Both the position numbers and the translations under genes were made by a program. Source: Candidatus Pelagibacter sp. HTCC7211 (GTDB lineage Bacteria > Pseudomonadota > Alphaproteobacteria > Pelagibacterales > Pelagibacteraceae). Taken from it: a DNA stretch of 32,000 nt. Shown one piece after another: positions 7,744-31,944 of this stretch; the first letter of the stretch is position 1; the number at the start of each line of letters is the position of its first letter. Location of the stretch: contig NZ_DS995298.1 of the NCBI RefSeq assembly GCF_000155895.1, positions 1,320,001 through 1,352,000 on the forward strand, in the 5' to 3' direction. The notes beneath the pieces were generated by a model. The model ran no database searches. It saw nothing but the letters and a program-made list of their open reading frames with translations, and had not been told where the DNA came from.

Positions 7744-8043
7744 ATGACTTATCAAGTTACAGAGGAAAATAATATTTCAACCGTATTTCTTAATGGTGAG
7801 ATCGATATGGACGTGACAGACAAAGCAAAGGACGTCATTTTGCCATTAATAGAAGCTGGTAAGGAAGTTCATATTAATCTTAAAGATGTTGAGTATATGG
7901 ACTCATCGGGTATTTCAGTGCTAATCGAAAGTCATCAAAAAGCAATGGAGCTTGGAACTAAAGTAACTCTAAAAGAAATCAGTAAATCTGTTCTTAAAGT
8001 AATTATGATGGCAAAACTAGAGCAGATCTTAAATTTAGATTGA
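7744..8043 (+). CDS. STAS-domain anti-sigma-factor antagonist (SpoIIAA/RsbV family)
   Basis: 99 aa. Conserved phospho-acceptor motif EYMDSSGISVL; Ser54 (nt 7903-7905) aligns by eye with SpoIIAA Ser58 in FMDSSGLGV. Confidence 0.9.
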   Translation: MTYQVTEENNISTVFLNGEIDMDVTDKAKDVILPLIEAGKEVHINLKDVEYMDSSGISVLIESHQKAMELGTKVTLKEISKSVLKVIMMAKLEQILNLD

Positions 8044-8453
8044 TGGATATTAAAGATCAAAAAGAGTTTCCCGTAGACTCGGCACAACTTAAAGAAGTAA
8101 GAAATTTTGCAAGAGGTTTATTTGATCAAGTTCCAGAATTTGAAGATAATAGAGAAGAATTAGTTTTAGCGTTAGCAGAAGCAGCTCAAAATATCGTCAA
8201 ACATGCTTATAGTGGTCAACCAAGTGGTGACACCATGAGAGTTGAAATTGAATATCAGGACAAAGTTTTAAAAATGGAATTATTTGATAAAGGCAAACCT
8301 GTTATCCCAGAAAATATTAAACCCAGAAAATTAACGGATATTAAAGCTGGAGGATTAGGTACTTTTTTTATCGGACAAATAATGGATGAAGTTGTTTTTA
8401 AAACTAATAAAGAAGATTGGGTAAATCACTTAATCTTAACCAAAAGATTTTAA
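8043..8453 (+). CDS. anti-sigma-factor-type serine protein kinase (SpoIIAB/RsbW family, GHKL ATPase)
   Basis: About 136 aa. N-box AEAAQNIVKHAY, G1-like FDKGKP, G2 box GGLGTFFIGQIMDEV. The track starts at TTG 8040. ATG 8043 gives a TGATG overlap with the STAS stop, suggesting translational coupling. Confidence 0.85.
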   Translation: MDIKDQKEFPVDSAQLKEVRNFARGLFDQVPEFEDNREELVLALAEAAQNIVKHAYSGQPSGDTMRVEIEYQDKVLKMELFDKGKPVIPENIKPRKLTDIKAGGLGTFFIGQIMDEVVFKTNKEDWVNHLILTKRF

Positions 8454-13454: not shown

Positions 13455-14091
13455 CGGGTATACCTACTATTGTTAATTCTCCTTGTGCAATAATCGCTCC
13501 AGTTGAATCATTTTGTACAATACTTATAGTCTCTTTGTCAAAGTTTAACATTTTGCTAGATTTGGCTATAGATCTCTTAAACTTGATATATCCAAGGAAA
13601 TTGCCTTTAATCTCGTATTCAACAGGTATTTTATAATATGAAATATCTGTTTTTTTCAATAGCTCCTCTGCTTGTTGAGCTACTCCACTTTTTAAAACTG
13701 GTTTAGGTTTTTTCTTTTGAATTTTAGAAATAGTTAAACCATTCACACCAGCATACTTACTTAAGCTCTGATACAATCCTTCAACTTCTTCTTTAGAATG
13801 AAATAACGTAGAACTTTTTTTAAACTCAGGCTCAAGTTTTTTTAATCTCTTTTTATTTAGAATAATTTCATTTTCAAATTGAACAATTTCGTTTTGCTTT
13901 AAAACTTTTTCATCATACAGGGCTTTTTTATTTTTAACGATTGGATTTAAAATAGCGTAATAACCAATTAAAAAAATAATAATTGCTGCAAAACCAATCC
14001 CAAATTTTATTAATGTTTTTTTATCAATTGCTTTAAGCTTTTCTTTTAAATCACCAACATTAATATTTTTTAAATCTACATTTAAATCCAT
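13441..14091 (-). CDS. pilO: PilO-like bitopic pilus alignment protein
   Basis: One TM (FGIGFAAIIIFLIGYYAIL), then a coiled coil, then a C-terminal alpha/beta domain, in the pilN-pilO-pilP position. The tracked start 14112 is TTG. ATG at 14091 (MDLNVDL...) forms a TAATG overlap with the pilMN stop and is preferred. Confidence 0.6.
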   Translation of the reverse strand: MDLNVDLKNINVGDLKEKLKAIDKKTLIKFGIGFAAIIIFLIGYYAILNPIVKNKKALYDEKVLKQNEIVQFENEIILNKKRLKKLEPEFKKSSTLFHSKEEVEGLYQSLSKYAGVNGLTISKIQKKKPKPVLKSGVAQQAEELLKKTDISYYKIPVEYEIKGNFLGYIKFKRSIAKSSKMLNFDKETISIVQNDSTGAIIAQGELTIVGIPDEFF

Positions 14092-15806
14092 TATGCGCTC
14101 TCCAATATACAAGCTACAACAAACCCTTTCATTGTGGGAGCATTTTGCGATTGCCCATCAGGAAGAGTCATTGTTGCTAATGATGCTTGCTTAATTAATT
14201 TTTTATTATTTAAATTACTTATTAATTTTAATATATCTTGGTCACTAAATGCTGAGCCTTTTATAACAATTTGACTTGAGCCATTATACTCAACTGATTC
14301 AAACTTTACTCTTTTTGGCACTGCTGAGGCAATTTGAGCCAATACTCTAAAACTTGCAGTTTTATTTGACTTAATCGATTTACTAATCTTGAGTGACTTT
14401 AATATTATACCAACATCTTTTTCTAGTTTATTTTTTTCAAGAGTTCTAAGCTCATGAGTTTGAACGATTTCATCATAATCTACTAACTTTCCATTTAATT
14501 CTTTGATTTGCCAAAATGACAATCCAAACAATGCTATATAAATTAATGAAACAACTCCAATTACACCTTTGAATGCAAAATTTGAAAACACTTTTGCTTT
14601 CTTTTGAGCCATCATGCTGTCTCTATTTGGAAGAAGGTTAATATTTTTTACTGCTGTTACAAATTTGTAATAACCAAAAACATCTAACTTTCTAAATGCT
14701 AAACCAATCACTGTTGAGAAGTATGATCTATTTTGATAATTAACACTTTCCTCTAATTGTGCAGGAACTTTAATTTCTTTAATAGGATCTAATAAATCAA
14801 AACCAGTATTAGCTAAACTTTTTCTAAAAGTTTCAAGATAAGTATCAACATTAGTTAAATTTGAGACAACTTTTAAATTTCTAATTCTTTTTTCATATTT
14901 TGTTTCAAAATCTTGTATCGCTTGTTTAACTTGGGTTACATATCTTCTAACCAAAGCATCCATATCTTCTTGGTTATCAGAATTTAAAAGCGTATTTCTG
15001 TCTTGGCCTCTTATAAATATATCTGTAATAATTGGATTATTTTCATATAAAATCATTACATAATTTTCATCCAATCCAAATTCTAGAACTGCAGTAAGAT
15101 TACTCTCTTCAATTGATCCACCAAGTTGATTGATTTGGTCAACAGCAGATTTAAGTGCAAAACATTTTACATCAATAATAACTGCATTAAGACCACCTTT
15201 TTTAATTATCGATGTGTAACTATTAATATCTGAAAGTTTTGAGGCAACGAACAAGATATCCATAGTATTGCCAGTGGTATCTCTATTAATAACTTGATGA
15301 AAAACTGAGTAATCATTTAGATTATCAGTAAGTTGAACTAAATTTTCCCAAAGTGAATCAGTATCAATTGCTTTATTTAATTCTTCGTCAGTCATTAAGG
15401 GTGCAGTCACTACTCTTATGATTGCACTTGTAACTGGAATGGCTATTGCAGCATTTGATGTTTGTATTTTAGATTTTTGTAAAGCAATTTGTAATTGTTC
15501 CCCATACTTATCTGGTTCATCTAATACGTTTGAATTCGCATCTGCATCCTCAATTTTATGAGTAAAAAATTTTTCTAAAACCCACTTATTTGATTTGTCA
15601 GTCGATAATTGAGCTAATCTTATTTCTGTGGGGGTTAGCTCTACTCCAACAATTTCTTCACCTTGAACAGCAGATTTTCCTAACCTGTTTTTAAAGAATT
15701 TACTAAAAAATCCTTCTTTCTTTTTTTTATCTTGAGCTTGTGGGACGGGTGTTCCCTCATCACCTTTCGGTTTTTTTTTAAAAAGATTTGCAAAAGGATT
15801 TTTCAT
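14091..15806 (-). CDS. pilM: fused PilM (actin-like ATPase fold) - PilN protein
   Basis: 571 aa. After a basic ~50-aa N-terminus, aa ~50-378 look like PilM (IVGVELTPTEIRLAQL..., IIDVKCFAL). The hallmark PilN N-terminal motif INLLP is internal (aa 389-393, nt 14628-14642). It is followed by the PilN TM (GVIGVVSLIYIALFGLSFW) and a periplasmic domain. Confidence 0.8.
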   Translation of the reverse strand: MKNPFANLFKKKPKGDEGTPVPQAQDKKKKEGFFSKFFKNRLGKSAVQGEEIVGVELTPTEIRLAQLSTDKSNKWVLEKFFTHKIEDADANSNVLDEPDKYGEQLQIALQKSKIQTSNAAIAIPVTSAIIRVVTAPLMTDEELNKAIDTDSLWENLVQLTDNLNDYSVFHQVINRDTTGNTMDILFVASKLSDINSYTSIIKKGGLNAVIIDVKCFALKSAVDQINQLGGSIEESNLTAVLEFGLDENYVMILYENNPIITDIFIRGQDRNTLLNSDNQEDMDALVRRYVTQVKQAIQDFETKYEKRIRNLKVVSNLTNVDTYLETFRKSLANTGFDLLDPIKEIKVPAQLEESVNYQNRSYFSTVIGLAFRKLDVFGYYKFVTAVKNINLLPNRDSMMAQKKAKVFSNFAFKGVIGVVSLIYIALFGLSFWQIKELNGKLVDYDEIVQTHELRTLEKNKLEKDVGIILKSLKISKSIKSNKTASFRVLAQIASAVPKRVKFESVEYNGSSQIVIKGSAFSDQDILKLISNLNNKKLIKQASLATMTLPDGQSQNAPTMKGFVVACILESA

Positions 15807-19870: not shown

Positions 19871-20404
19871 ATGAAAAAAATTATACTTATTCTAGCAATC
19901 TCTTTAATTAGCATTTCTGCAAATGCAGCATGTAAATTTGATTTAAATTTCGGTGATGATGCATCAAAAGTTTTTGATAAATATGGTCCACCAATGAAAG
20001 AAATGTTCGAGGAACTATCATTTATTCCAGTTCCAGCTGATGATGTCTGTCCCAATCAAAATTTAAAAGATATTGCAATTGAATATCGTTTCTTAAATGA
20101 AAAATTAGCAGCAATTAATTTAATTGTTTTAAATGATGAAAAAAATTCAGCTTCAGAAAAATTAACTTTAATGAAATATGCGAAAAGAGTTTATGGAGAT
20201 TTTGATACGGGTCAAAACCCAAAAGCTTATGTTGGTTTTGAAGTGTTCGAGAAAAATAATTATTATGTAGTTTATCAAAAATTAGTTGAAGACAAAATGA
20301 TCAATGAGCAACTTTATATTTCAACCGATGAATATGATCAATTGCTTGGTGAAGTTTATAACAAAGCTGAAGAAGAAATGGATACAGGACCTAAGGAAAA
20401 TTAA
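19871..20404 (+). CDS. secreted protein of unknown function, coupled to pilY1
   Basis: 177 aa. Signal peptide MKKIILILAISLISISANA/A, two Cys, acidic C-terminus. Its TAA stop overlaps the pilY1 ATG (TAATG at 20402-20406). Confidence 0.55.
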   Translation: MKKIILILAISLISISANAACKFDLNFGDDASKVFDKYGPPMKEMFEELSFIPVPADDVCPNQNLKDIAIEYRFLNEKLAAINLIVLNDEKNSASEKLTLMKYAKRVYGDFDTGQNPKAYVGFEVFEKNNYYVVYQKLVEDKMINEQLYISTDEYDQLLGEVYNKAEEEMDTGPKEN

Positions 20405-23400
20405 TGAAAATAAAATTTATAATAACTACTTTAGTTTTATTTTTTAGTTTTGTTTCAACAAACGTAAGTTCAAAAATTTTACCTCCTGGAACAGGAACAC
20501 AAGCAGACGTTCCCTCAAACCTTTTAATATTATTAGATAAATCTGGAAGTATGGGTTGGAGAATGAGAAATGCTCAAGGTCTTAATTACATGTACGTATC
20601 TGCAACCGATAGCTCAGGAAATATTTATGTAGCACAATATTCTACTTATGGTGTTAAAAAATATAACTACTCAGATATGTCCGACGACACTTCATGGGGA
20701 AGCAATGGAGTTGTTGGAAGAAGTGGATCTTGTAGAACTTATTATCCTTATGGAATTAAAGTTCATAACGGTATTATCTACGTAAGTAGTTATTATGATC
20801 GAAGAATTAGAAAAATTAGAGTTTCTGATGGAGCTTGCTTAGGCAGTATTGTCCCAGGTAACAGTAGGGCTTATCCAATATCAGTAGATATTCATAATGG
20901 GCATTTGTATGTTACAACCAATCTAGGTTTGTTTACGCAAAACTTAAGTAATGGTGCTAGCAAAATGTGTGGAAACCCCTCTGGTTTTAGGTATTCTCAC
21001 GCAATGACAGGTAGTGGAAACTATTTGTACAGTAATTATAGCAGAAGAATATACAGAGGAACGCTGACAAGTTCTGGTTCCAATCTTTGTCCAACGAATA
21101 TAAAAGCCCATAACGCCTATGGTATGAGCTGGGTCTACGGTATGACAGCCCACCCTACCAATCCAAATGAATTATATGTAATGGCGAGAAATATGCATCA
21201 AATTTTTAAAATTACTGTTAATTCAGCAGGCACGGGTCATACTGTTAATTGGCGAAAAGGAAGGTGGGGATACCAAAAACAATCAACTGCAACCCAAAAT
21301 TACTTTTATTATCCATGGGGTATTCATTATGATGATGATAATCATCGATTAATTGTATCAGGATATAACCAAAAAAAAATTCAAGTATTTGATAATAATG
21401 GTGTCTTTATTAAAGATAAAGGTGGTATGGCTGCTACGACAAGAATGGCAGCAGCACATGCTGCAATTAAAGCAATTGTAACAGATTCTAATTTAACATC
21501 AGGGGTTAATTTTGGCTTTGGATATTGGTCAAGTAGATGGAGTGCTCGACAATGGCCACCTGGATTTAGTTCTTGGTCAGGAAATATCACAACAGGTTCT
21601 GCTAGACCTTGTGATACTCAAAACTGCTTAAAAGTGAGGGTTCATAAAGATGGTGCTGCCCAAATTAATAAAATTATTTCATCAGTAAATGCTCGTGGAG
21701 GAACGGATCCATATACATTTATGAAGATAGCTCAAGATTATTATAATCATGGAAGTTTAAGTCCAATTGATAAAAAATCTCCTTGTCAAAAAAGTTACGT
21801 GATAGTGATTGGAGATGGTGATTTTTTTCCTTCGATGGGCTGGAATACTCATATCAATATGGCAAAAGCTTTAAACAATAAAGGAATTAAAACTTTTGGA
21901 GTTGCTTTTGGAACAGGGATTAGCCCAGGTGGATTAAAAAGGTTTAATGATCTTGCAAAAGCTGGTGGAACCACTAAAGCAATTATTGCGCCAACTGCGG
22001 CAGCTTTAAAAACCCAATTACAAGCTGCAATTTCACAAATCATTGCATCTAAACTTTCATTTACCGCACCGGCAATTACTGCAACATTAAATGAAGATGG
22101 CTCTTTATATCAAGCTCAATTTGATTACGCACAAAATAAAGAGTGGAATGGAACTATTAAAAGAACCAAGATTGATAAAAATGGAAAATTATATCCAAAA
22201 GATAAAGATAACTGGAGTGCAGTTGATAAATTACCAAAGTCAGGTGCTAGAAAAATTTGGAGTGCAATTCCAAATACTGATTACACAACAAATTATAATA
22301 ACTGGACTACGAGTAATGCTACTGCAATAGATAATTTAGTAAGCTTGATGGGATTTGATGTTCAAGATTACCATCGAAAATCTAACAACTCTGATGGATC
22401 AACTAACAATAAACGTTGTGCTAATGCATCAGGTGTTGCTGATGGAACTGATGATGATCTTAAAGGTTTAATTAATTTTATTCGAGGAACAGATTACTTT
22501 GATTATGATGCTGATTGTAATTTAACTGAAGATAGGCCAAACCCAATGGGAGATGTCTATCATTCTCAATTAGTAACTGTTGGTCCACCTACTGCTGAAA
22601 CTGCATTTACAAGTGAGAACCAAGAAAGTTATTGGAGAGCTACTAAAGGTTATGACGCTTGGGCGGAAACACAAAGAAGCAGAAAAACAATGATTTATGT
22701 TGGCTCTAACAGTGGAGTATTACACGCATTGAATGCCGATACTGGTATTGAAGAATGGGGATTTATTCCTCCATTTGTTGCCTCAAGATTAACAAGAGTA
22801 ATGAACACAAACTTAAACCAAGTAAGCCCAGCTGCTAAAGGAGGAAGTAATGCAATTTACGGTGTAGATGGCTCTCCTGTACAACATGATATTTGGTTCA
22901 AAAGTCCTCATGATACTTCAGAAAGATGGCATACTGTTTTATTTGTACCTTATGGAAGAGGTGGAAGTGGATTTACGGTGTTAGATGTTACAGATCCTGT
23001 AAAACCATTTCACTTAGTCTCTATTTATAACGATCTAGTAAATAATAAAGTATATCGAATGACCCATGATCAGCAAATTTTAATGTATAATTATATTGGT
23101 AGGTCATATCCTTTATCTGAATTAATGGAAGCAAAACGTGCAGGTGATAACTATGCTCCTGACAAAGGTAGTGAAGTTGCCTCAAAACAAGTTTGTAATG
23201 ATGGCGGAACTTCATATTGCTATAAGAGTAAGAAATGGACTTTAGAAGTTAAAAATTTAACTAAGAAAGACATAACCGTCATGGAAGATGGTAAAGATAT
23301 AACTGGCTCTATTACAATCACTTACGATGCTGCAAAAGATACTGTGATTAACTTTAATAAAGAAATGCAGTTTGATGCAGATGAAACTACTGGTAATAAA

Positions 23401-24558
23401 TTAAATTCTCCAATTGGTATAACTATAAAATCAGGTGCAGTTGGAACAGGTGTGTTAACTGATCCAGAGTGGGATTATAGTTCTTTAGGTGAAACATGGT
23501 CAGATCCAAGAATGTTTAGACTACCAAACAAGGGTGCAGGTGATAATAACCGTGCAGATGATATTAATGTAGCTGTTATGGGTGGAGGATTTGGAACACA
23601 ATTCTCAGGAGCTGGAAGTAACGTCATGATTATCAATATGCAAGATACTGATAATTATGGAAAATTAGAAAAAGTAATTCAAATTGAAGATACTGCTGCA
23701 AGTGATATTGATAATTCTGTTCCATCATCATTAACAGTAATTACTCCAGATAAAGCAAAAGGTGCAAACTTTGCAGGCTCTTTAGTTTATGCAGGAGATC
23801 TTGAAGGTAAAATTACAAAGATTAATTTAACAAATATGTCAGCAGATCCTTTAGGGGTGCCAATTAAATTATATGATCATACTACTTTATTTAAAGCAGG
23901 TGCTACTAAAACAAATGGAAGATATATGTATCACGCTGTAGATGCAGCAATTGGTCAATCAACCAGTGACTTGTGGTTGTATGCTGGAACGGGTGATGCT
24001 CAAAGATTAAATGATAGAACAACTGGAACACAAAACATGATGATTGGAATTAGAGATGCCGATTATCCAAATTATAGATCTATTGCAACGCCAGCAAAAG
24101 CTGCAGATATCACGAAATGTCAAAACACTACTAATGATACAGCTGGTAAACCATGTAGAGTTCAGAATAAAGACTTGGGTTGGTATGTAACACTAAAAGA
24201 TTTTGCAAAAGTCAGTGCACAACCAAAAGTAAATAATGGTTATGTTTATTTCCCAGTTTACAGACCATCTAAATCAGTTAACAAATGTGATCTTGGAGAT
24301 GCATTTATCTGTGCTGTTGATGATGAGTGCGGAACCCATGATAGTTTCATAGGACTAGAATCTTCTAGATCAGAGCAATCTGGATCTAAGTGTAGATTTG
24401 TTGGTAAAGGGGTATTGTCAGAAATTGTACTATTTGCTGGTAAAATCTTTGCAAATATCTCTGGTAAATCTCTAGGAGCAGTGACTGATCTAGTAACTCT
24501 TGATGCCGCAACGGGCGAGTCAAGTACTTACCGAAAATCTTGGCGAGAGAACAATTAA
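20404..24558 (+). CDS. pilY1: PilY1-like pilus tip adhesin: vWA domain (interrupted by an NHL-type repeat region) plus C-terminal PilY1/PilC beta-propeller
   Basis: 1384 aa with a signal peptide. MIDAS motif LLILLDKSGSMG, with ARGGTD and VIVIGDGD later. Six ~45-aa NHL-like repeats span aa ~58-340. PilY1 hallmarks are present: WNGTIKR, PMGDVYHSQLVTVGPP, MIYVGSNSGVLHALNADTGIEEWGFIPP, VYAGDLEGKITKINL. Confidence 0.9.
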   Translation: MKIKFIITTLVLFFSFVSTNVSSKILPPGTGTQADVPSNLLILLDKSGSMGWRMRNAQGLNYMYVSATDSSGNIYVAQYSTYGVKKYNYSDMSDDTSWGSNGVVGRSGSCRTYYPYGIKVHNGIIYVSSYYDRRIRKIRVSDGACLGSIVPGNSRAYPISVDIHNGHLYVTTNLGLFTQNLSNGASKMCGNPSGFRYSHAMTGSGNYLYSNYSRRIYRGTLTSSGSNLCPTNIKAHNAYGMSWVYGMTAHPTNPNELYVMARNMHQIFKITVNSAGTGHTVNWRKGRWGYQKQSTATQNYFYYPWGIHYDDDNHRLIVSGYNQKKIQVFDNNGVFIKDKGGMAATTRMAAAHAAIKAIVTDSNLTSGVNFGFGYWSSRWSARQWPPGFSSWSGNITTGSARPCDTQNCLKVRVHKDGAAQINKIISSVNARGGTDPYTFMKIAQDYYNHGSLSPIDKKSPCQKSYVIVIGDGDFFPSMGWNTHINMAKALNNKGIKTFGVAFGTGISPGGLKRFNDLAKAGGTTKAIIAPTAAALKTQLQAAISQIIASKLSFTAPAITATLNEDGSLYQAQFDYAQNKEWNGTIKRTKIDKNGKLYPKDKDNWSAVDKLPKSGARKIWSAIPNTDYTTNYNNWTTSNATAIDNLVSLMGFDVQDYHRKSNNSDGSTNNKRCANASGVADGTDDDLKGLINFIRGTDYFDYDADCNLTEDRPNPMGDVYHSQLVTVGPPTAETAFTSENQESYWRATKGYDAWAETQRSRKTMIYVGSNSGVLHALNADTGIEEWGFIPPFVASRLTRVMNTNLNQVSPAAKGGSNAIYGVDGSPVQHDIWFKSPHDTSERWHTVLFVPYGRGGSGFTVLDVTDPVKPFHLVSIYNDLVNNKVYRMTHDQQILMYNYIGRSYPLSELMEAKRAGDNYAPDKGSEVASKQVCNDGGTSYCYKSKKWTLEVKNLTKKDITVMEDGKDITGSITITYDAAKDTVINFNKEMQFDADETTGNKLNSPIGITIKSGAVGTGVLTDPEWDYSSLGETWSDPRMFRLPNKGAGDNNRADDINVAVMGGGFGTQFSGAGSNVMIINMQDTDNYGKLEKVIQIEDTAASDIDNSVPSSLTVITPDKAKGANFAGSLVYAGDLEGKITKINLTNMSADPLGVPIKLYDHTTLFKAGATKTNGRYMYHAVDAAIGQSTSDLWLYAGTGDAQRLNDRTTGTQNMMIGIRDADYPNYRSIATPAKAADITKCQNTTNDTAGKPCRVQNKDLGWYVTLKDFAKVSAQPKVNNGYVYFPVYRPSKSVNKCDLGDAFICAVDDECGTHDSFIGLESSRSEQSGSKCRFVGKGVLSEIVLFAGKIFANISGKSLGAVTDLVTLDAATGESSTYRKSWRENN

Positions 24559-24755
24559 AATAATCTAAAGTAAAAATAAAATATCCACAAAAACATTGTG
24601 GCCATTGTCACAAAAATCAAAGCAAGACCAACTAAACTATCTTGATCAACTTTCTTTCTCCATTTTTTTGGAAAGAAGTTCAAAGAATAAGCATAGATAA
24701 TTATGAAAACATTAAATGCTGAAAATACAATGCTTAGAAAAAGAAGTTTATCCAC
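24555..24755 (-). CDS. possible small 2-TM membrane protein (doubtful)
   Basis: 66 aa, GTG start. Two hydrophobic stretches separated by KKWRKK. Its stop overlaps the pilY1 stop in a shared TTAA. It contains the candidate terminator above, so it may not be a real gene. Confidence 0.33.
   Translation of the reverse strand: MDKLLFLSIVFSAFNVFIIIYAYSLNFFPKKWRKKVDQDSLVGLALIFVTMATMFLWIFYFYFRLF
24565..24601 (-). terminator. candidate rho-independent terminator of the minus-strand pilD operon
   Basis: Inverted repeat CCACAA-aaaca-TTGTGG (24585-24601). On the minus-strand transcript it is followed at once by a U-rich run (reverse complement of 24565-24584 = ATATTTTATTTTTACTTTAG). The stem is short (6 bp, 3 G:C). 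It lies inside the 3' end of the doubtful small ORF 24555-24755. Confidence 0.4.
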
Positions 24756-24779: not shown

Positions 24780-25772
24780 TTATTCCTCGAAAGCTTTACC
24801 GGTTAACTCACCACTTGCTTCCAATCTTTCAATAGTGCCTGCAAAAGTAGCCTCGTTAGCTCCATCATCAACATAACCACCCTCAACAATTATCGTTCCA
24901 AGTCCAGAGGTTGAAGAAGTAGCAGTTGTAAATTTTCCATAAAAGAATATGTCCTGATCACCAGTATTTCCTCCAGTAACTTTGTGATTAAAGTTATCAA
25001 TTAATTCTGCTTTTGTAAGGCCTATACAGCCATCACATACATCTTGAATTGTTGTGGCATTTTTTTTCATGGTGTCATTTATTCCATCAAAATTATCATG
25101 GCCATTTGTTCCATCAGCCTTAAATTTTCTTACAGTTGTTGCTACAATTGGCACTGATGTAAAACCAGCTGTACCTGAATTATAATTTGTTTGTAAGGTT
25201 GAAGTTGCCCCTTCTGCACGTGTAAGCTTTACATCAATATCAGCCCAAATTTCCTTCTTTTTAAAATTAACATAAACTTTACCTCTAGTTTGTTGAGTGC
25301 CTGTTGCACTAAATACATTATTATTTGAGCTATATGTTTTTCCATCGTAAGAAGTAACTTTCTCTAAATCAGTCCAAGCCATTGAATAAACAATTGTGTT
25401 TTGATCTGGCGTTGATACATAATCATCATCTAATTGAGTTAAATTGTCAGTTAAAGAAGTCAAAGCAGCTGATACTGATTTACTGTCAGTACTTGATATA
25501 CCAGATAAAATATCAGCAGCAGCAGTGTCAACTGTTAAACCAAACTTGGCCGCATCTGCTTGAATATCAGCTTTCAAATTTACAGTGTCAATTATACTTG
25601 AAGTTGTCAAATTATTGCTTTGTTGGTTTGCAGTATTACTAGAAGAATGGCCTAAAGACTTTGCAATTTTTGAAATTGTAAAAGAACTCTGAGTTGCACT
25701 CGTTACTCCTGAATAAGAGTTAACAATCAAAAGTAAAAAAATTGTGAATGAGTTTAAAAAAATTTTTATCAT
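24780..25772 (-). CDS. secreted Ser/Thr/Asn-rich protein of unknown function
   Basis: 330 aa. Signal peptide (FTIFLLLIVNSYSG), no lipobox Cys. Low-complexity polar N-terminal third. The C-terminal ~170 aa look beta-rich and end DIFFYGKF...EATFAGTIE...LTGKAFEE. TAATG overlap with the FecR-domain gene stop. Confidence 0.6.
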   Translation of the reverse strand: MIKIFLNSFTIFLLLIVNSYSGVTSATQSSFTISKIAKSLGHSSSNTANQQSNNLTTSSIIDTVNLKADIQADAAKFGLTVDTAAADILSGISSTDSKSVSAALTSLTDNLTQLDDDYVSTPDQNTIVYSMAWTDLEKVTSYDGKTYSSNNNVFSATGTQQTRGKVYVNFKKKEIWADIDVKLTRAEGATSTLQTNYNSGTAGFTSVPIVATTVRKFKADGTNGHDNFDGINDTMKKNATTIQDVCDGCIGLTKAELIDNFNHKVTGGNTGDQDIFFYGKFTTATSSTSGLGTIIVEGGYVDDGANEATFAGTIERLEASGELTGKAFEE

Positions 25773-26344
25773 TAGTTTGTTACCACTGTTTCAAAACCTG
25801 GTTGGATAATATTAACTGAATTCACACCATCTGTTACTTCTAGATTGCCAGGTGTCATCCCAAGGGAATTGTTAGGACCTGGTCCAAGCAATAATACTGT
25901 GTTTTCATTTTTAGAATTTGCCAATACTACAAATTCAGTACCCCTTGCCCCTATTGCCCCTGTTGGTATCTTTATTTCTAAGTTATCAGGGTCTTTTTTG
26001 CTAATTTTTCCTGTAATAATTTTAATAGTTCCAGATTTGATATTTGACACGAATTTACCATCATTTGTCTCCGGATCATAAACAAATTCATCTATTTTTA
26101 ACTCAGAATCTTCCCCAAGTGTCATAACTGTTTGATCAAGAAACAACACTTGCGCTGTAGATTTGCTTCCAACAATTATAGTATCGCCATAAAATATTTT
26201 AGAACCATTTTCTAATTTTTGATTATTTTGATTTTTTACTTCTCCAACTCCTGCTCCAATAATACCTACAAACTCATTTGCAAATGAGCTAATTGATAAA
26301 AAATTTAAAAAGATAAAAATAATTATATGTTTAAAATATTTCAT
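25772..26344 (-). CDS. periplasmic FecR-domain protein
   Basis: 190 aa. Signal peptide (IIFIFLNFLSISSFA/NE). FecR-domain pattern: ENGSKIFYGDTIIVGSKSTAQVLFLDQTVMTLGEDSELKIDEF ... IKIPTGAIGARGTEFVV. No TM anchor or anti-sigma N-domain. Confidence 0.8.
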   Translation of the reverse strand: MKYFKHIIIFIFLNFLSISSFANEFVGIIGAGVGEVKNQNNQKLENGSKIFYGDTIIVGSKSTAQVLFLDQTVMTLGEDSELKIDEFVYDPETNDGKFVSNIKSGTIKIITGKISKKDPDNLEIKIPTGAIGARGTEFVVLANSKNENTVLLLGPGPNNSLGMTPGNLEVTDGVNSVNIIQPGFETVVTN

Positions 26345-27671
26345 TTAAATTTATTCGTTTAGTTAATCCTAAGCTTAAAAACTTTCGATCAACATCATAA
26401 TTTAGTATATTTGAACTTATATCAGAATGTTTAAACTTTAAAGAGTAAAATATACTATCATCTTTATTCATTTTTTTTACAAAAGGAATAATTTGATTTA
26501 ATTGACCAGAAAGTGAAATTGTTGATACTAAACTTTCATCTTTTCTATCAATTGTAGATGAAATAAATGTATCTTTAGCATCATAAGAATTCTCTAAATA
26601 AGTAGTCTGTAGCTTTAAAGTTCCATATTTAATAATTTGAGAAATAGAAAAATTAATTCCCTCTGAATTATAGCTATCATAATCTTTAGAAGAGTCTGTT
26701 TTATTTAAAATTAATTTACTACTGAGTTGTGTTGTTGGAGAAAAATTAAAATTATATCGAATATTACTTGAATAATTTTCAAAATTTTTGTCATCAGCTG
26801 CATCAAACGTATTTGTTTGATCGTAACTAGTGTTTGAATAACTAATACCATAATTGATATTATTTTTTTCATTAACAACATACGTATTATTAAAACCTGT
26901 TCCTTTTGTATTGTAGTCCTCAAGACGTCTATAATTTGGTCTAGAATAATAAATGTATGGAGAAAAGTAATGGTTTCCTAATACTTTAAAATAACTAGTT
27001 GAACCCGATATTATTTCACTGTCTCCAGTAGCTTTTTTATTTTGTGTATTAATATCTATTCCAAAATTAAAATAAATCGAAGAAGTATTATCAAAATTTT
27101 TCCCGAAAGTTATTGAGCTTCCTTTTTTGTGAATTTTATCATTTGCAACAATAAGATGATCATCAACTACAGGGAATGGAATTGACACATCGTCCTGTAA
27201 TAGTGTTTTTGTCTTTGTTATAGCACTTATATTATCTTCTCTAGTCTGAGTGTAAGTTAAATCAATATAAGAGAACCATTTTTTATTTTGTTCTTCAATT
27301 TGATCATTAGATAATAATTCTGCAATTAATACTCTTGTTTCATCTGTTGTATTAGGATCATTTAACATTGTTTGGATCATCAATTCTACCTTAACTTTGG
27401 AATCCATTTTTATTAATATTGATAATAAATATAATTTAATGTCAGAGTTTGAGGGATAAAGAATATTTAATCTTTCAAGGGTTGCGATTGTTAATTTAAA
27501 ATTTCCAGCTTTTTCTTGTTGTTTTGCATAGTTTAAATTTAATTCAAGATCAGTAGGATTATCGAGTATTTCTTTATATGAAATTTCTGCAAACACTGAA
27601 TTAAAGCTAAAAAGTATTAAGATTGTCAATTGTATGCAAAGACGTTTCATATCTAAAAAATTATATATCAT
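26331..27671 (-). CDS. outer-membrane protein: N-terminal TPR-like domain plus C-terminal beta-barrel (Slam/DUF560-like architecture)
   Basis: 446 aa. Alternative ATG at 27650 gives a classical signal peptide MKRLCIQLTILILFSFNSVFA/E. TPR-like helices span aa ~30-130. The rest is Tyr/Asn/Ser-rich with alternating beta-strand-like segments and a terminal Phe (...RINLNEIF). Confidence 0.65.
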   Translation of the reverse strand: MIYNFLDMKRLCIQLTILILFSFNSVFAEISYKEILDNPTDLELNLNYAKQQEKAGNFKLTIATLERLNILYPSNSDIKLYLLSILIKMDSKVKVELMIQTMLNDPNTTDETRVLIAELLSNDQIEEQNKKWFSYIDLTYTQTREDNISAITKTKTLLQDDVSIPFPVVDDHLIVANDKIHKKGSSITFGKNFDNTSSIYFNFGIDINTQNKKATGDSEIISGSTSYFKVLGNHYFSPYIYYSRPNYRRLEDYNTKGTGFNNTYVVNEKNNINYGISYSNTSYDQTNTFDAADDKNFENYSSNIRYNFNFSPTTQLSSKLILNKTDSSKDYDSYNSEGINFSISQIIKYGTLKLQTTYLENSYDAKDTFISSTIDRKDESLVSTISLSGQLNQIIPFVKKMNKDDSIFYSLKFKHSDISSNILNYDVDRKFLSLGLTKRINLNEIF

Positions 27672-27704
27672 TTTATTTAAGTTACTTTAGAACAATTTTT
27701 AAAA

Positions 27705-29714
27705 TTAATTTATAATTTTTATTCCAAGTGCTGTGATATCATCCCTTAAAGTATAACCTTTTTCTGTAAGGATTTTAGTTGCGTGGGTAATAATTGTCTC
27801 AGGTGAAGTTGTATTTAATTTTTTTATTTCGCTTTCAAGACCTGCAACTTCCAGTTCTTTACCTTCATCAACATACCCTTCTGTAACTCCATCTGTATAA
27901 ATTAAAATAGTTTTATCTGAGATATCCATAGTCGTAGTTTTAAAAAAACTTTCATCTTTAACTGGCATCAATCCCATTGGTGGTAGAGTTGATTTTATAT
28001 ACTCAAAGTTAAAATTTGGATCTAAAACCATCATTGGTTCATGACCCATATTAATAAACTCCATCTCTTTTTTTTCTAAATTTATTTTTCCTAAAATAAC
28101 AGTTATAAACATTGCTTGATAAGAAGAATCTTTTACTTGATTGTTCATATACAAAGCTGTTTTTGCAACTGATGACTCCATTTTTGCAAGTGATCTAAAC
28201 ACAGCTGCAGCATTTGCCATTAATATTCCAGCTTTAACACCCTTCCCAGTTACATCTCCAAGTATAAAATAGATTTCATTATCACTAACTTGATAATAAT
28301 CATAATAATCTCCTGATACATCCTTTGCAGGTGTATTTTTTGCAAATATATATTTCTCAATTTTTTTATTATTTGGGAATAATTTTTTTTGAACTTCTCC
28401 AGCAATTTCTCTCTCTTTTTTTAGTATCGATTGCTTTTTGTCATTTTCAATTGCGATAGAATTTTCCTCTAAATATCTAAAATATAATGACGTCATAAAA
28501 GCTAATGTTCCAGCAACACTTGAAAAAAGAAAATCTAAATAAAAATTAAATTGATAAATAATAATACTTGAAAGATTAATTACAAAAATTGAACCTACAA
28601 AAAATATAATACTAAACTTTGGCTTAATTTTCATAGGGATTAAAATTAAAAATATTAATAATAATAAAAAGATAATGTTTTCTGCTAACTGAGTGTAAAT
28701 ATTTTTAATAATGCTTTCATTTTTAAAAATGTTATCAATGATATGTGCATGAATTTCAACTCCAGGAACATATTTTCCATTAGCAATTTTAACAATATCA
28801 AAGAGTGCTTGTGCAGAGGATCCTATTAAAATTATTTTATTTTCAACTTTTTTTTGATCAAAATCATTGTTTGCTACATCAACAGCAGAGATATAATTTT
28901 CCTTAGAAAATTTGTTAAACTTCACATTAATTACAGCATTTTGATCGCTGGGAATTGTATTTTTTCTTGTCTTTATTAACTCAATTCCATTTTTACTACT
29001 TTTTACTAATAAATTTTTTTGACCTGTTGCAATCCTCACCGACTCAAGAGCTAACGAAGGCCATATTTTATCATCTATATTATAAAGTACAGGCACATTA
29101 CGAATTACACCATCTATACTAGGGATTAAGGAAATTGAACCAATACCACTGGCTGCACTACTAATTTCCTCAAGAGAAATTATTTTATGTTTAAATTTAT
29201 ATATAAAATTTTTAGGATTCTCTCCTTTGGCAAGTAATCTTAATTTAGGTTTAGAATTATTCTTTACAAAATTATTTTTTGGTTCGCCTAAAATAGGTAA
29301 AATTGCTTTTGAATTTTTTATACTTTCAATAAAGATCTTATTTGTATCTTCTACCTCTATATCTATTAATTGATTACTTTCTTTTTGTAATTGCTGCAGT
29401 AAATCTTTTGGGTTTTGCTTATCTTCCTCGCTAAATACTATATCAAATGCAATAGCTTTAGGATTATGCCGATTTAAGTTTTTTAAAATTTTTGAGTAAA
29501 TGTCTCTTCTCCAAGGAAATTGACCAACCTTAGCTATACTTTTTTCATCTATATCAACAATTGTGACATCTTTTACTTCGCCCCTATTAAATACTTTTTG
29601 ATAAAAATCATAATTTAAAAATGAAATTTTTTGAATAATAGGAGGATTAATAAATTTAATGATTATTAAAAATACAAAAATTACACTTAAATAAATATAT
29701 TTTTTATTAATCAT
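27705..29714 (-). CDS. CHASE2 periplasmic sensor domain - 3 TM - SpoIIE/PP2C phosphatase
   Basis: About 669 aa. N-terminal TM, then CHASE2-like region (VTIVDIDEKSIAKVGQFPWRRDIYSKILKNLNRHNPKAIAFDIVFSEED ... IILIGSSAQALFD ... PGVEIHAHIIDNI). A TM cluster spans aa ~345-415. PP2C motifs: VSGDYYDYY, LGDVTGKGVKAG, NMGHEP, YTDGVTE, DDITALG. The tracked start is TTG 29717. ATG 29714 gives a TGATG overlap with the pilD stop. Confidence 0.85.
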   Translation of the reverse strand: MINKKYIYLSVIFVFLIIIKFINPPIIQKISFLNYDFYQKVFNRGEVKDVTIVDIDEKSIAKVGQFPWRRDIYSKILKNLNRHNPKAIAFDIVFSEEDKQNPKDLLQQLQKESNQLIDIEVEDTNKIFIESIKNSKAILPILGEPKNNFVKNNSKPKLRLLAKGENPKNFIYKFKHKIISLEEISSAASGIGSISLIPSIDGVIRNVPVLYNIDDKIWPSLALESVRIATGQKNLLVKSSKNGIELIKTRKNTIPSDQNAVINVKFNKFSKENYISAVDVANNDFDQKKVENKIILIGSSAQALFDIVKIANGKYVPGVEIHAHIIDNIFKNESIIKNIYTQLAENIIFLLLLIFLILIPMKIKPKFSIIFFVGSIFVINLSSIIIYQFNFYLDFLFSSVAGTLAFMTSLYFRYLEENSIAIENDKKQSILKKEREIAGEVQKKLFPNNKKIEKYIFAKNTPAKDVSGDYYDYYQVSDNEIYFILGDVTGKGVKAGILMANAAAVFRSLAKMESSVAKTALYMNNQVKDSSYQAMFITVILGKINLEKKEMEFINMGHEPMMVLDPNFNFEYIKSTLPPMGLMPVKDESFFKTTTMDISDKTILIYTDGVTEGYVDEGKELEVAGLESEIKKLNTTSPETIITHATKILTEKGYTLRDDITALGIKIIN

Positions 29715-30475
29715 CAAAATAATAAATTTTTATATTGTTCTATAAATATTATATATAAAATGCACCCTATAATAATAAAAGGACCAAATGGAATTTCTGA
29801 TGAAAACTTTTTACTTTTATTTAGTAAACTAGGTAAAACAACAAACAATGCTACGATTGAAGAACTAAATATTACAAATGGTATTGCAATCCAACCAAAC
29901 CAAAAACCTATTGCAGACAATAATTTAGCATCTCCTAATCCCATCCCTTCTTTGTTTCTTAAAACTTTATATATAAAAATAATTGCCCAAATTATTCCAT
30001 ATCCAAATACCCCTCCAATTAAAGAGTTGATATAATTTGGAAATAGTTCATTTAAATTTGGATCAAAAGACTTTATGAAACCTATAAACATTAATGGAAA
30101 AGTAAGACCATTTGGAATTATATAATGTTTTAAATCAATAAAAAAAATTATAATAAATGTTAAGGCTAAAATTATAAACAACAGCGTTGTAATCGTTATT
30201 CCATAAAAAAAGTAAGCTATAACGAAAGATAAAACACTTAAAAGTTCAACAATTAGATATTGTATTGATATTTGCTTTTTACATTTCCTACATTTTCCTT
30301 GAATAAACAAATAAGATAGAATTGGTATATTATCATACCAAGAAATTTGTGTTTTACATTTAGGACAGTACGATCTACCAGAAACAACCCCTTTATCTTG
30401 AGGAAGTCTATAAATACAAACATTGGCAAAACTTCCCCAAAGTCCTCCCATTACAATGATGAAAATAAAATCCAC
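29714..30475 (-). CDS. pilD: prepilin peptidase / N-methyltransferase PilD (peptidase A24)
   Basis: 253 aa. Zinc-type CPKC...CRKC motif with SWYDNIPILSYL. Catalytic Asp contexts FFIDLKHYIIPN and GMGLGDAKLL. The tracked start is GTG. Confidence 0.94.
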   Translation of the reverse strand: MDFIFIIVMGGLWGSFANVCIYRLPQDKGVVSGRSYCPKCKTQISWYDNIPILSYLFIQGKCRKCKKQISIQYLIVELLSVLSFVIAYFFYGITITTLLFIILALTFIIIFFIDLKHYIIPNGLTFPLMFIGFIKSFDPNLNELFPNYINSLIGGVFGYGIIWAIIFIYKVLRNKEGMGLGDAKLLSAIGFWFGWIAIPFVIFSSSIVALFVVLPSLLNKSKKFSSEIPFGPFIIIGCILYIIFIEQYKNLLF

Positions 30476-30651
30476 TGAAGAAATAATATTTATTATATTT
30501 TAAATTGGCCCGCTATTTCAATGAAACCGTTTAATAACATTTGCACCACAACTACTGCGTCATGTAAATGAACATACAAATTTGGCGTATATAATATGAT
30601 TTCCATATTTGATAAATTTATCAAAAACAGGTTAAAATACTAGCTAATAAA
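30476..30651. promoter_or_regulatory. divergent promoter region between pilD (-) and the GAF-PP2C gene (+)
   Basis: 176-nt spacer. Possible sigma70-like TTGATA (30609-30614) - N18 - TAAAAT (30633-30638) close to the + strand ATG. A ~70-nt stretch (30506-30587) is noticeably less AT-rich than other spacers. Confidence 0.3.
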
Positions 30652-31944
30652 ATGCTCTTTTTTAAAACAAAAAAACCCATTCTAAATGAAATAAGAAATG
30701 AGGCTCAAGATAACGTTGACTTACAAATTATAAATAAAATGAATCAAGAGTTTGCAATTTCTCTTGATTTAAAAGAAACCTTAAATACAGCGCTTAAGAT
30801 AATTATTACGAGATTAAATGCACAAGCTGCAAATGTTTTTTTAATAAATAATAAAACAAAAAAATTTGAATGTATTGCATCTCTTAATCAAGAACACTTA
30901 GATGAATATCAGCTTGAATTAAAAGATGGCGTGATGGGTAGAGCAGTTGACCAAAGAAAATGTATCCGTGTTGGAAATGTTAGAAAAGATGTAAGAGAAA
31001 TAGCTGAATTTTATTTTGATCTAGATAATAAAACAAATTTTACAACTTATTCTGTATTATGTTCACCACTGATAGCTGCAAATGATTGTATTGGAGTTAT
31101 TCATTGTTTAAATAAAAAAACGGATGAAAAATTATTTATCGAAGATGATCGAAAACTTTTAGAACTATTATCTACTCCTGCTGCTCTTGCAATAAGAAAT
31201 GCGAAAATGGCTCAAGAAATGGTTGAGCAAAACAAGATTCAAAAAGAAGTTGAAATTGTTGGTGAAATCCAAAAATCTCTTTTATCTTCAAACAAAAAAG
31301 AACCTTTTCCGTTAGCAGGAATTAATATTCCTGCAAAAGTTGTGTCTGGAGATTTTTATAATTTTAATGACTTAGGTGAAGGAAAATATGGATTTGGTGT
31401 GGCTGATGTATCCGGTAAAGGAATAAAGTCATCGTTGTTAATGTCAAAAGCTTCAAGTTTATATAGCTGCTTAAGTAAAACAAATTTTTCACCAGGCAAT
31501 TTGCTCACTCAATTAAATAATGAAATATGTGAAACAATTTCAAGAGGAATGTTTGTAACTATGTTAATTGGAATTTATGATAGTAATTCAAATGAACTGT
31601 TGTTAGCTAATGCTGGTCACGAACCACCCATTATCATGGATAAAGATAATAATTTTTCAAATTTTGAAGAAGCTGGACCTCCTTTAGGAATAATAGGAAA
31701 GACAGAATACAAAGAATATAAGATAAATTTTGAAAAAAGCTCAATGTATATTTTCACTGATGGTATTACTGAAATAAAAAATCCTGAAGGAAATGAATTA
31801 GGATCAAAAGGATTTCAAAATTATATTACTAAATTTAAGGATAAACCAAATAATGAAAGATTAAAATTAATCATTGATAATGTCTTGGGTTCTAAATATA
31901 TCCAGAAAGATGATTTAACAATCGTTGTCTTAGACTCTAAATAG
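30652..31944 (+). CDS. GAF sensor domain - SpoIIE/PP2C phosphatase (RsbU/RsbP-like)
   Basis: 430 aa, ATG start, no TM. GAF-like aa ~30-185 (...ANVFLINNKTKKFECIAS...GVMGRAV...CSPLIAANDCIGVIHCLNK...LLELLSTPAALAIRNA). PP2C motifs: VSGDFYNF, VADVSGKGIKSS, ANAGHEP, FTDGITE, DDLTIVV. Confidence 0.9.
   Translation: MLFFKTKKPILNEIRNEAQDNVDLQIINKMNQEFAISLDLKETLNTALKIIITRLNAQAANVFLINNKTKKFECIASLNQEHLDEYQLELKDGVMGRAVDQRKCIRVGNVRKDVREIAEFYFDLDNKTNFTTYSVLCSPLIAANDCIGVIHCLNKKTDEKLFIEDDRKLLELLSTPAALAIRNAKMAQEMVEQNKIQKEVEIVGEIQKSLLSSNKKEPFPLAGINIPAKVVSGDFYNFNDLGEGKYGFGVADVSGKGIKSSLLMSKASSLYSCLSKTNFSPGNLLTQLNNEICETISRGMFVTMLIGIYDSNSNELLLANAGHEPPIIMDKDNNFSNFEEAGPPLGIIGKTEYKEYKINFEKSSMYIFTDGITEIKNPEGNELGSKGFQNYITKFKDKPNNERLKLIIDNVLGSKYIQKDDLTIVVLDSK

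Follow-up and report, generated by a model that had tools for sequence, protein, structure and literature searches.

CHASE2 is a common bacterial sensor domain, for which no ligand is identified in the literature cited here (PMC5192318). In S. meliloti, signalling through the CHASE2 cyclase CyaK requires an outer-membrane protein, NsrA (PMC7529298; PMC13001267). Here we describe a comparable gene group in the SAR11 bacterium Candidatus Pelagibacter sp. HTCC7211, found in a 32,000-nt stretch of contig NZ_DS995298.1 (positions 1,320,001 to 1,352,000; hereafter, the window) that has a GC content of ~30% and contains a complete type IV pilus locus. Within that locus, a sensor with a CHASE2 domain and a PP2C phosphatase domain (CHASE2-PP2C) is encoded beside an outer-membrane protein (OMP) with tetratricopeptide repeats (TPR) and a barrel, a FecR-domain protein and a further predicted exported protein, the “orphan”; we refer to the genes of these last three proteins as the trio. 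On balance, and with modest confidence, we read the region as a modular envelope-spanning sensory system in the SAR11 type IV pilus locus; a trans-envelope relay of this kind is plausible and has precedent.

The experimental precedent is NsrA. On pSymB, the gene that overlaps cyaK by 1 nt encodes a protein of 1197 amino acids (aa), the published length of NsrA; it has a FecR domain at its N terminus as well as TPR, and published NsrA has a beta-barrel at residues 600-1200 (PMC7529298). The two systems thus have in common a FecR domain, TPR and an outer-membrane barrel encoded beside a CHASE2 sensor gene, with a tight junction; however, NsrA is one 1197-aa chain, whereas the window encodes a 439-aa TPR-barrel protein, a 190-aa FecR-domain protein and an extra partner. 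Further, the output of NsrA-CyaK is cAMP synthesis rather than a PP2C phosphatase, and its setting is a symbiosis plasmid rather than a pilus locus. A cluster in Campylobacterota comprises a CHASE2 adenylate cyclase, a phosphodiesterase, a FecR-domain protein and a TPR protein (PMC9239204), the last of which can be likened to the window's OMP by description only. The Burkholderia “BiofilmReg” operon (response regulator, LysM-FecR protein, CHASE2 histidine kinase and DUF4136 protein; PMC5192318) also places an exported FecR-domain protein immediately beside a CHASE2 sensor, but has a histidine kinase output, a LysM domain on the FecR protein and no TPR-barrel OMP. Finally, clusters in other Alphaproteobacteria (discussed later), known here from genes alone, encode an OMP, a FecR protein and a CHASE2-cyclase; their OMPs are homologous to that of the window (profile matches; hhalign 98%) and they share gene order with a paralogous SAR11 module, but their output is a cyclase, not a PP2C, and their FecR proteins are 310-983 aa long with varied C-terminal extensions, whereas the window has a minimal FecR protein and a separate partner.

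Other known systems resemble parts of the region. Members of the Slam/type 11 secretion system (T11SS) family, like the window's OMP, combine an N-terminal periplasmic TPR domain with a 14-strand barrel and have an exported partner encoded next door; T11SS OMPs are 14-stranded and their PgaA-type relatives 16-stranded (PMC8406197), and proven members of the DUF560 family translocate the product of the adjacent gene (PMC8406197, PMC12282271). The partner of the window's OMP is, however, a FecR-domain protein rather than TbpB-like, hemophilin-type or lipoprotein cargo, and linkage to CHASE2 or FecR is not described in the T11SS papers considered here. The initial annotation of this DNA had likened the region to Fec-type cell-surface signalling, which likewise sets a periplasmic domain of the FecR family between a barrel protein in the outer membrane and a signalling step at the inner membrane. 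We no longer hold to that analogy. A Fec-type TonB-dependent transducer with a signalling domain is not present (the OMP gave no TonB_dep_Rec, Plug or STN match); Fec-type FecR is a single-pass anti-sigma factor, whereas the window's FecR protein has neither a transmembrane (TM) segment nor a cytoplasmic anti-sigma part; no extracytoplasmic function (ECF) sigma factor was found among the window's open reading frames (ORFs) scanned; and at the inner membrane the step falls to a separate CHASE2 enzyme. On the output side, RsbU/RsbV/RsbW-type partner switches (SpoIIE-SpoIIAA-SpoIIAB; P. aeruginosa SiaABCD) share with the window a SpoIIE-family PP2C, a single-domain STAS protein and an RsbW-like kinase, but the window differs in its CHASE2 input with outer-envelope partners and in its three differently sensed PP2Cs (CHASE2, GAF and ammonium transporter). 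A literature search returned no paper linking CHASE2 with PP2C, and searches for Pelagibacter with type IV pili, SpoIIE, anti-sigma or STAS returned nothing describing the SAR11 module. The type of module is already known, but little studied; what is new is the splitting of its components, the PP2C/STAS output and the setting in a pilus locus.

The gene run and its variation within SAR11

The initial annotation had proposed five minus-strand genes (pilD, CHASE2-PP2C, OMP, FecR and orphan) as an operon led by pilD. All five ORFs were found where it had placed them (Table 1); pilD, CHASE2 plus PP2C, and FecR were confirmed by Pfam, whereas the OMP and the orphan have no Pfam match. The tight junctions that it described were also read in the sequence. 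The stop codon of pilD and the ATG of the CHASE2 gene overlap by 1 nt as TGATG (29712-29716); the gap that follows the CHASE2 gene is 33 nt if measured to the OMP ORF and 54 nt if measured to the M8 start (27650), which homologues favour; the OMP and FecR genes overlap by 14 nt (26331-26344); and the FecR gene meets that of the orphan at TAATG (25772).

Table 1. Features of the window that bear on the CHASE2-PP2C region, in order of position.
Feature	Position	Strand	Length	Properties
Amt-PP2C fusion	3723-5960	-	745 aa	Ammonium_transp 6.8e-107; SpoIIE 4e-28
STAS protein	7744-8043	+		STAS 3.2e-15; DSSG phospho-serine motif; candidate PP2C substrate
RsbW/SpoIIAB-like serine kinase	8040-8453	+		HATPase_c_2 1.1e-21; gene overlaps STAS gene
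pilM-pilN fusion	14091-15806	-	571 aa	One ORF with PilM_2 and PilN domains
PilY1-like gene	20404-24558	+	1384 aa	Weak NHL and VWA matches only
Small two-TM ORF	24555-24755	-	66 aa	GTG start; conserved at 68-98% identity in relatives
Terminator-like hairpin	24585-24601	-		Sole scan match; inside the 66-aa ORF
Orphan	24780-25772	-	330 aa	Predicted exported; one N-terminal signal-like segment
FecR-domain protein	25772-26344	-	190 aa	FecR PF04773 1e-11, residues 54-148
OMP	26331-27650	-	439 aa from M8	ORF to 27671 (446 aa); signal peptide, TPR, barrel
CHASE2-PP2C	27705-29714	-	669 aa from ATG at 29714	670-aa ORF; CHASE2 4.8e-50, SpoIIE/PP2C 1.7e-31 (Pfam)
pilD, prepilin peptidase	29714-30475	-	253 aa	GTG start; A24_N_bact 5.3e-33; Peptidase_A24 6.5e-21
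Best sigma-70-like promoter match	30492-30521	-		TTGAAA-18-TATAAT, 11/12; upstream of pilD
GAF-PP2C	30652-31944	+		SpoIIE 1.5e-40 plus GAF; divergent from pilD

We compared the region with 80 related genome loci, all from Pelagibacteraceae. In the orthologous loci (n=23) the OMP is 48-94% identical to that of the window, and upstream neighbours were counted over the 22 of these that have room on both sides; a second comparison, anchored on the sensor CHASE2-PP2C, served as a control for sampling bias of the OMP-anchored set. The trio is constant in its own order: the FecR gene and then the orphan gene lie 3' of the OMP gene in 23/23 orthologous loci, and the FecR gene is directly downstream of the OMP gene in these and in 53/53 paralogous SAR11 loci. 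Spacing is conserved as well (-8 to -20 nt between OMP and FecR in 22/23 orthologous loci; -1 to +4 nt between FecR and orphan in all the unfused ones), so the tightness of these two junctions exceeds chance. What stands upstream of the trio varies. The order CHASE2-PP2C, OMP, FecR, orphan was found in 11/22 loci, with CHASE2 identities of 39-98%; pilD was directly upstream of the OMP gene in 5/22; and neither was upstream in the remaining 6/22, all of which lie outside the pilus locus and include a locus with a fused FecR-orphan gene (L013).

The run in the window does not end with the orphan. A 66-aa ORF, the 3' end of which overlaps the stop codon of the convergent PilY1-like gene by 4 nt, is a sixth co-oriented gene and the true last gene. 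The initial annotation had also placed a candidate terminator only after the last gene; the hairpin lies inside this sixth gene, and the one hairpin found, against 1.9 expected from shuffled sequences, is not above chance. Promoter-like sites (46, against 43.2 expected) are as numerous overall as chance predicts in AT-rich DNA, so the good match upstream of pilD is only suggestive. With both counts equal to chance in such DNA, promoter and terminator scans cannot settle the operon structure.

The comparison anchored on the sensor gene explained where the trio sits. In L094 (Ca. P. ubique, GCA_000472605.1; CHASE2-PP2C 88% identical), pilD is followed by CHASE2-PP2C and then directly by the small ORF, with PilY1 convergent, and there is no trio. 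The same arrangement, also without the trio, is present in L101 (CHASE2-PP2C 92%, PilY1 92%, GAF-PP2C 99%), where the ATG of the small ORF lies ~10 nt past the sensor's stop codon. In five further loci without the trio (L096-L100; CHASE2-PP2C 88%), CHASE2-PP2C faces a convergent series of PilY1, pilD and then the small ORF, which here comes after pilD. In the window, the trio (~24780-27671) is placed at precisely the junction of sensor gene and small ORF. Because the closest relatives keep CHASE2-PP2C and the small ORF without it, the trio is a strain-variable accessory cassette, present in some close strains and absent from others with 90-99% identity in the genes on either side. In the window's sub-clade, the transcription unit is framed by pilD and the small ORF. 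A public contig, L095, encodes proteins 100% identical to those of the window for all genes of the region (98% for the small ORF).

These data bear directly on the proposal of a fixed, pilD-led five-gene operon for pilus biogenesis with Fec-like surface signalling. The tight junctions in the window, the position of the best promoter-like site upstream of pilD, and the overlap of pilD with CHASE2-PP2C, which recurs in L094, L095 and L101, are what such an operon would predict. On the other hand, only 2/22 orthologous loci have pilD at the head of CHASE2-OMP, the gene being elsewhere downstream, on the opposite strand or directly before the OMP gene, so that it is the first gene of the run in the window's sub-clade only; the closest relatives have no trio; the proposed terminator lies within a sixth gene; and the hallmarks of Fec signalling were not found. 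We consider this operon quite improbable, and the five genes are not a conserved unit. The divergent GAF-PP2C gene is a far steadier neighbour of pilD than the CHASE2 module is: it adjoins pilD in every SAR11 locus that has pilD on the strand of the run (71-100% identity), and in L096-L100, where pilD is inverted, it flanks CHASE2-PP2C.

SAR11 genomes also carry a paralogous module, OMP'-FecR'-CHASE2-PP2C', which was found in 38/38 loci with room on both sides and whose OMP' is 26-34% identical to the window's OMP. Its FecR' proteins (L028:11411-12649, L064, L020, L073) are 390-440 aa long, with a long lysine-rich tail (KKKRKKK...). In L020 both OMP-FecR modules stand in tandem around one CHASE2-PP2C gene, and two tandem orphan paralogues (352 and 337 aa; L020:11887-13981) follow the FecR gene.

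The sensor and the cassette proteins

The hydropathy profiles agree with the envelope locations that had been predicted for these proteins. CHASE2-PP2C has a TM segment at residues 9-27 and a TM cluster at 343-387. Its phosphatase domain contains the PP2C motifs GDVTGKG, TDGVTE and DDIT, and alignment to the PP2C domain of Rv1364c has the GDVxGxG and DG motifs in place. The identical HTCC7211 protein (P0331) is named “putative adenylate/guanylate cyclase transmembrane protein” by NCBI; as it consists of CHASE2 and SpoIIE domains, without a cyclase domain, this name is misleading.

The OMP has one N-terminal signal-like hydrophobic segment and no Pfam or NCBIfam match; against SlipAM/DUF560 (PF04575) it gave no match even at E<=10. 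We found 674 homologues, the best 120 of which are marine-metagenome or SAR11 proteins, and a profile search of 1.84 billion representatives yielded 496 relatives. Among 26 close homologues, one passed SlipAM (P0041, 59% identical; 27.2 bits against a cut-off of 22), as did the more distant relatives P0298 (48.1 bits), P0222 (30.1), P0296 (29.0) and P0289 (27.2); the OMP family aligned to P0298 over its full length with an hhalign probability of 98.2% (E 5e-14). An AlphaFold (AF2) model built from 26 sequences (pLDDT 76) has TPR-like helices at 32-121 and 14 long strands at 132-441, in keeping with the predicted TPR-barrel protein, and its best fold matches in the PDB are the 14-strand barrels CymA (TMq 0.43-0.47) and OmpG (TMq 0.37-0.46). 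No Slam chain was among the top 50 PDB fold matches, the OMP profile matched no PDB sequence, and the relationship to a canonical Slam from Novosphingobium, which has a TbpB-like neighbour, is weaker. Together, the profile matches of its relatives indicate that the OMP belongs to a putative divergent branch of the Slam/DUF560 (type 11 secretion) superfamily; the protein in the window does not itself reach the Pfam threshold.

TPR followed by a barrel is also the architecture of polysaccharide export porins of the PgaA/BcsC/PelB type, and PelBC and BcsC are among the fold matches of the OMP model (ranks 9, 12 and 19). BcsC and PelB have larger barrels. The TMq values of PelBC and BcsC (0.34-0.37) are lower than those of CymA and OmpG; PgaA-type barrels have 16 strands, as noted, against 14 in the OMP (PMC8406197); and the module contains no glycosyltransferase or synthase genes, its conserved neighbour being the FecR-domain gene. 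We ruled out the porin reading on strand number and gene context, and regard it as very improbable indeed.

The FecR-domain protein has a single N-terminal hydrophobic segment (a signal peptide) and neither a TM segment nor an anti-sigma part, and is predicted to be exported and soluble. It is weakly similar, below cut-off, to three NCBIfam families: LipL45, a Leptospira FecR-domain lipoprotein; Lsa33, a Leptospira surface adhesin; and the LapA retention module. The orphan has no Pfam or NCBIfam match, and its 34 homologues are all from marine or SAR11 sources; on this sampling it appears SAR11-specific. Its model has a pLDDT of 64 overall, with a beta-rich C-terminal domain (~120-330) mostly at 75-93 and a helical N-terminal part of low confidence. 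Foldseek returned no significant match to the PDB (best E 0.026, TM-score <0.2; LbpB probability 0.13), and profile searches of PDB and Pfam returned nothing.

The initial annotation had described this protein as an orphan secreted protein. FecR::orphan fusions are encoded in P0152-P0154 (511 aa) and in a single-cell genome (L013:11274-12839), and in them the orphan's signal peptide is gone. As this is a true gene fusion in one lineage, it argues that the orphan is a partner that acts together with the FecR protein. The orphan is also the fastest-evolving member of the trio, with a median identity of 43%, compared with 56% for the OMP and 64% for FecR; GAF-PP2C stands at 77%, and only PilY1 is lower (33%).

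The family assignment of the OMP raises an alternative: that the trio is a T11SS (Slam-like) module for secretion or display of the FecR protein and/or the orphan (e.g., as an adhesin or nutrient binder), and that its adjacency to CHASE2 reflects co-regulation or chance. Several observations fit. The OMP falls in the DUF560/SlipAM superfamily and has the 14-strand barrel and TPR of a family whose proven members translocate the adjacent product (PMC8406197, PMC12282271); the FecR gene occupies the position of the cargo gene beside canonical Slam genes; the FecR partners in other gene contexts have Ig-like or repeat extensions of a kind typically seen on surface proteins; evolution is fastest in the orphan and PilY1, as it is in exposed proteins; 11/22 loci have the trio without CHASE2; and there is the weak, below-cut-off likeness to Leptospira FecR-domain surface lipoproteins. 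However, no TbpB-like 8-strand cargo barrel was detected in the orphan by fold or profile searches, leaving the idea of a T11SS-type cargo unconfirmed, and a lipobox cysteine is absent from both the orphan and the FecR protein. Nor does secretion explain why CHASE2 recurs beside OMP and FecR in distant taxa, or why NsrA unites FecR, TPR and barrel and signals to CyaK. We consider a secretion module on its own rather unlikely.

Recurrence of the module outside SAR11

The contigs of distant OMP relatives provided gene contexts outside SAR11, with GC contents of 55-64% except for L085 (33.5%). A FecR-domain gene adjoins the OMP gene in every such context with enough sequence. The order OMP, FecR, CHASE2-cyclase was found in L082/L083, L084, L089 (where the cyclase gene is divergent), Shinella sp. 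H4-D48 and Paracoccus aminophilus, and CHASE2 and cyclase domains were confirmed for the Shinella and Paracoccus genes. OMP and FecR genes with no CHASE2 gene in view were found in L085, L086, L087, L088 and Azospirillum thermophilum; the FecR gene of L087 is cut by the contig end and was detected by tblastn only. A tblastn search of plasmids with the OMP relative P0298 gave no S. meliloti match. The FecR partners that were scanned all begin with a signal peptide and the FecR domain, beyond which comes an extension that differs between proteins; the split FecR and orphan pair of SAR11 occupies the position of these long FecR proteins. The C-terminal extensions of L082, L086 and the SAR11 paralogue L028 aligned with the orphan at an hhalign probability of <1%, and are thus not homologous to it.

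In all, a CHASE2 sensor stands beside an exported FecR-domain protein in 38/38 paralogous SAR11 loci and in six non-SAR11 organisms; in the window the two genes share a strand, CHASE2-PP2C being 1.4 kb upstream of FecR. The initial annotation had suggested that FecR-domain genes recur near CHASE2 sensors elsewhere, and the paralogous loci, the high-GC contigs, Shinella, Paracoccus and the published clusters bear this out.

This recurrence is what weighs on a further alternative, in which the neighbours are unrelated and the trio is an island, variable between strains, that came to lie in a pilus region prone to recombination, its adjacency to the sensor having no function. Such an island would account for the polymorphism between strains with 90-99% identical flanks, and for the several contexts in which trios are found. 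However, three gene types recur together across taxa, in different orders and with different outputs, which is hard to explain without selection for linkage, and the NsrA-CyaK combination is functional in at least one organism. We judge mere adjacency improbable.

Two of these contexts have neighbours of their own. In the high-GC organism represented by L082:1-6842 and L083, the OMP-FecR-CHASE2-cyclase genes are divergent from a type II secretion/MSHA-like cluster (secretin, XpsN, T2SSM, PilN, pseudopilin, T2SSF and an MshE-type ATPase), a setting that echoes the pilus locus of SAR11. On a plasmid of Ruegeria sp. THAF33 (L103:1355-8100), a FecR-domain gene precedes one for an adenylate/guanylate cyclase, a homologue of the CHASE2 cyclase of Shinella; this pair is divergent from a TonB-ExbB-ExbD cluster and has no adjacent TPR-barrel OMP gene.

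Output, pilus setting and interpretation

The window encodes a possible target for the phosphatase. A STAS protein with a DSSG phospho-serine motif is encoded together with an RsbW/SpoIIAB-like serine kinase (Table 1), and the pair adjoins pilC in those SAR11 loci that cover the region. Three PP2C genes lie in the pilus locus: CHASE2-PP2C, GAF-PP2C and a fusion of an ammonium transporter to PP2C (Amt-PP2C). The Amt-PP2C gene is directly upstream of OMP'-FecR'-CHASE2-PP2C' in most paralogous loci in which the upstream region is present, a position which suggests that nitrogen status also feeds into this STAS switch. SAR11 pili have been suggested to serve DNA uptake under nitrogen limitation (PMC12789548).

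Gene content, domain and fold assignments, co-occurrence, overlaps, fusions and the cassette polymorphism are established by the comparisons above, and on them we build the following reading. The core would be the inner-membrane sensor CHASE2-PP2C, co-transcribed in the window's sub-clade with pilD and the 66-aa membrane protein; the accessory cassette would supply a Slam/DUF560-like OMP, an exported FecR-domain protein and a beta-rich, SAR11-specific partner. By analogy with NsrA-CyaK, (i) the barrel/TPR protein and the FecR-orphan pair would form the outer half of the pathway and convey a cue from the surface or the periplasm to CHASE2; (ii) this input would change the activity of the cytoplasmic PP2C toward the phosphorylated STAS protein of the same locus; and (iii) dephosphorylation would shift the STAS/RsbW partner switch. 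We infer the physical contacts, the direction of signalling, the STAS protein as substrate and any effect on the pilus, the last of these from the co-location of the module with pilus genes only. Since the closest strains are without the cassette, any dependence of the sensor on it would be conditional. The initial annotation had proposed a similar trans-envelope chain ending at STAS; synteny, NsrA-CyaK and the STAS/kinase pair in the locus keep its outline plausible, whereas the fixed operon and the likeness to Fec have been given up.

Several results weigh against this reading of a modular sensory system. Neither promoter nor terminator scans gave a signal above chance, and co-transcription is deduced from gene spacing alone. 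Half of the orthologous trios (11/22) are without an adjacent CHASE2-PP2C gene, five of them and L013 being outside the pilus locus. The closest CHASE2-PP2C orthologues (88-92%; L094, L096-L101) are without adjacent OMP, FecR and orphan genes, and thus the sensor does not strictly need the cassette at its locus. The barrel of NsrA (~600 residues) is not detectably homologous to the OMP (hhalign probability 0.09), so that the analogy with NsrA is one of domain composition only. Finally, neither a sigma factor nor any other target for the partner switch was recognised in those ORFs of the window that were scanned.

A more specific version of the envelope-spanning reading joins it to the family assignment of the OMP. 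Tentatively, a Slam/T11SS branch may have been recruited to signalling and, with the FecR-domain protein encoded beside it, may make up the outer half of a widespread input device for CHASE2 sensors that spans two membranes; the barrel would possibly thread or display the variable C-terminal part of the FecR protein, which in SAR11 is the separate orphan, as an exchangeable surface antenna. Equally tentatively, and somewhat doubtfully, this antenna would make the trio a SAR11 plug-in cassette that tunes the PP2C/STAS switch together with the ammonium- and GAF-sensing phosphatases, and so governs the making or use of pili.

The remainder of the locus is made up of pilus genes. Pilins, pilC, pilB, pilQ, pilO and the pilM-pilN fusion are on the minus strand, and pilT, minor pilins and the PilY1-like gene are on the plus strand. 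The pilM-pilN fusion gene is kept in the SAR11 loci that cover that region. No gene of the locus is more divergent than the PilY1-like one, which is 31-51% identical in most relatives; in L094 the orthologue has the annotation PF05567 (T4P_PilY1). An Rfam scan of the whole window found no RNA family.

The only worked example of CHASE2 input, NsrA-CyaK, uses an outer-membrane protein, and the recurrence of FecR, TPR and barrel, as separate and homologous genes, next to CHASE2 sensors whose outputs differ suggests a general device for input across two membranes. As the SAR11 components are split, they are simpler material for interaction and structural tests, and they point to a possible role for those members of the Slam/T11SS family that have no recognisable cargo. 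SAR11 has very few regulators. Three sensor-phosphatases, one STAS/kinase pair and a surface-input cassette that varies between strains come together in this one locus, which yields a regulatory hypothesis that can be tested in the cultivable strain HTCC7211, and the variability of the cassette may account for strain-level differences in pilus use.

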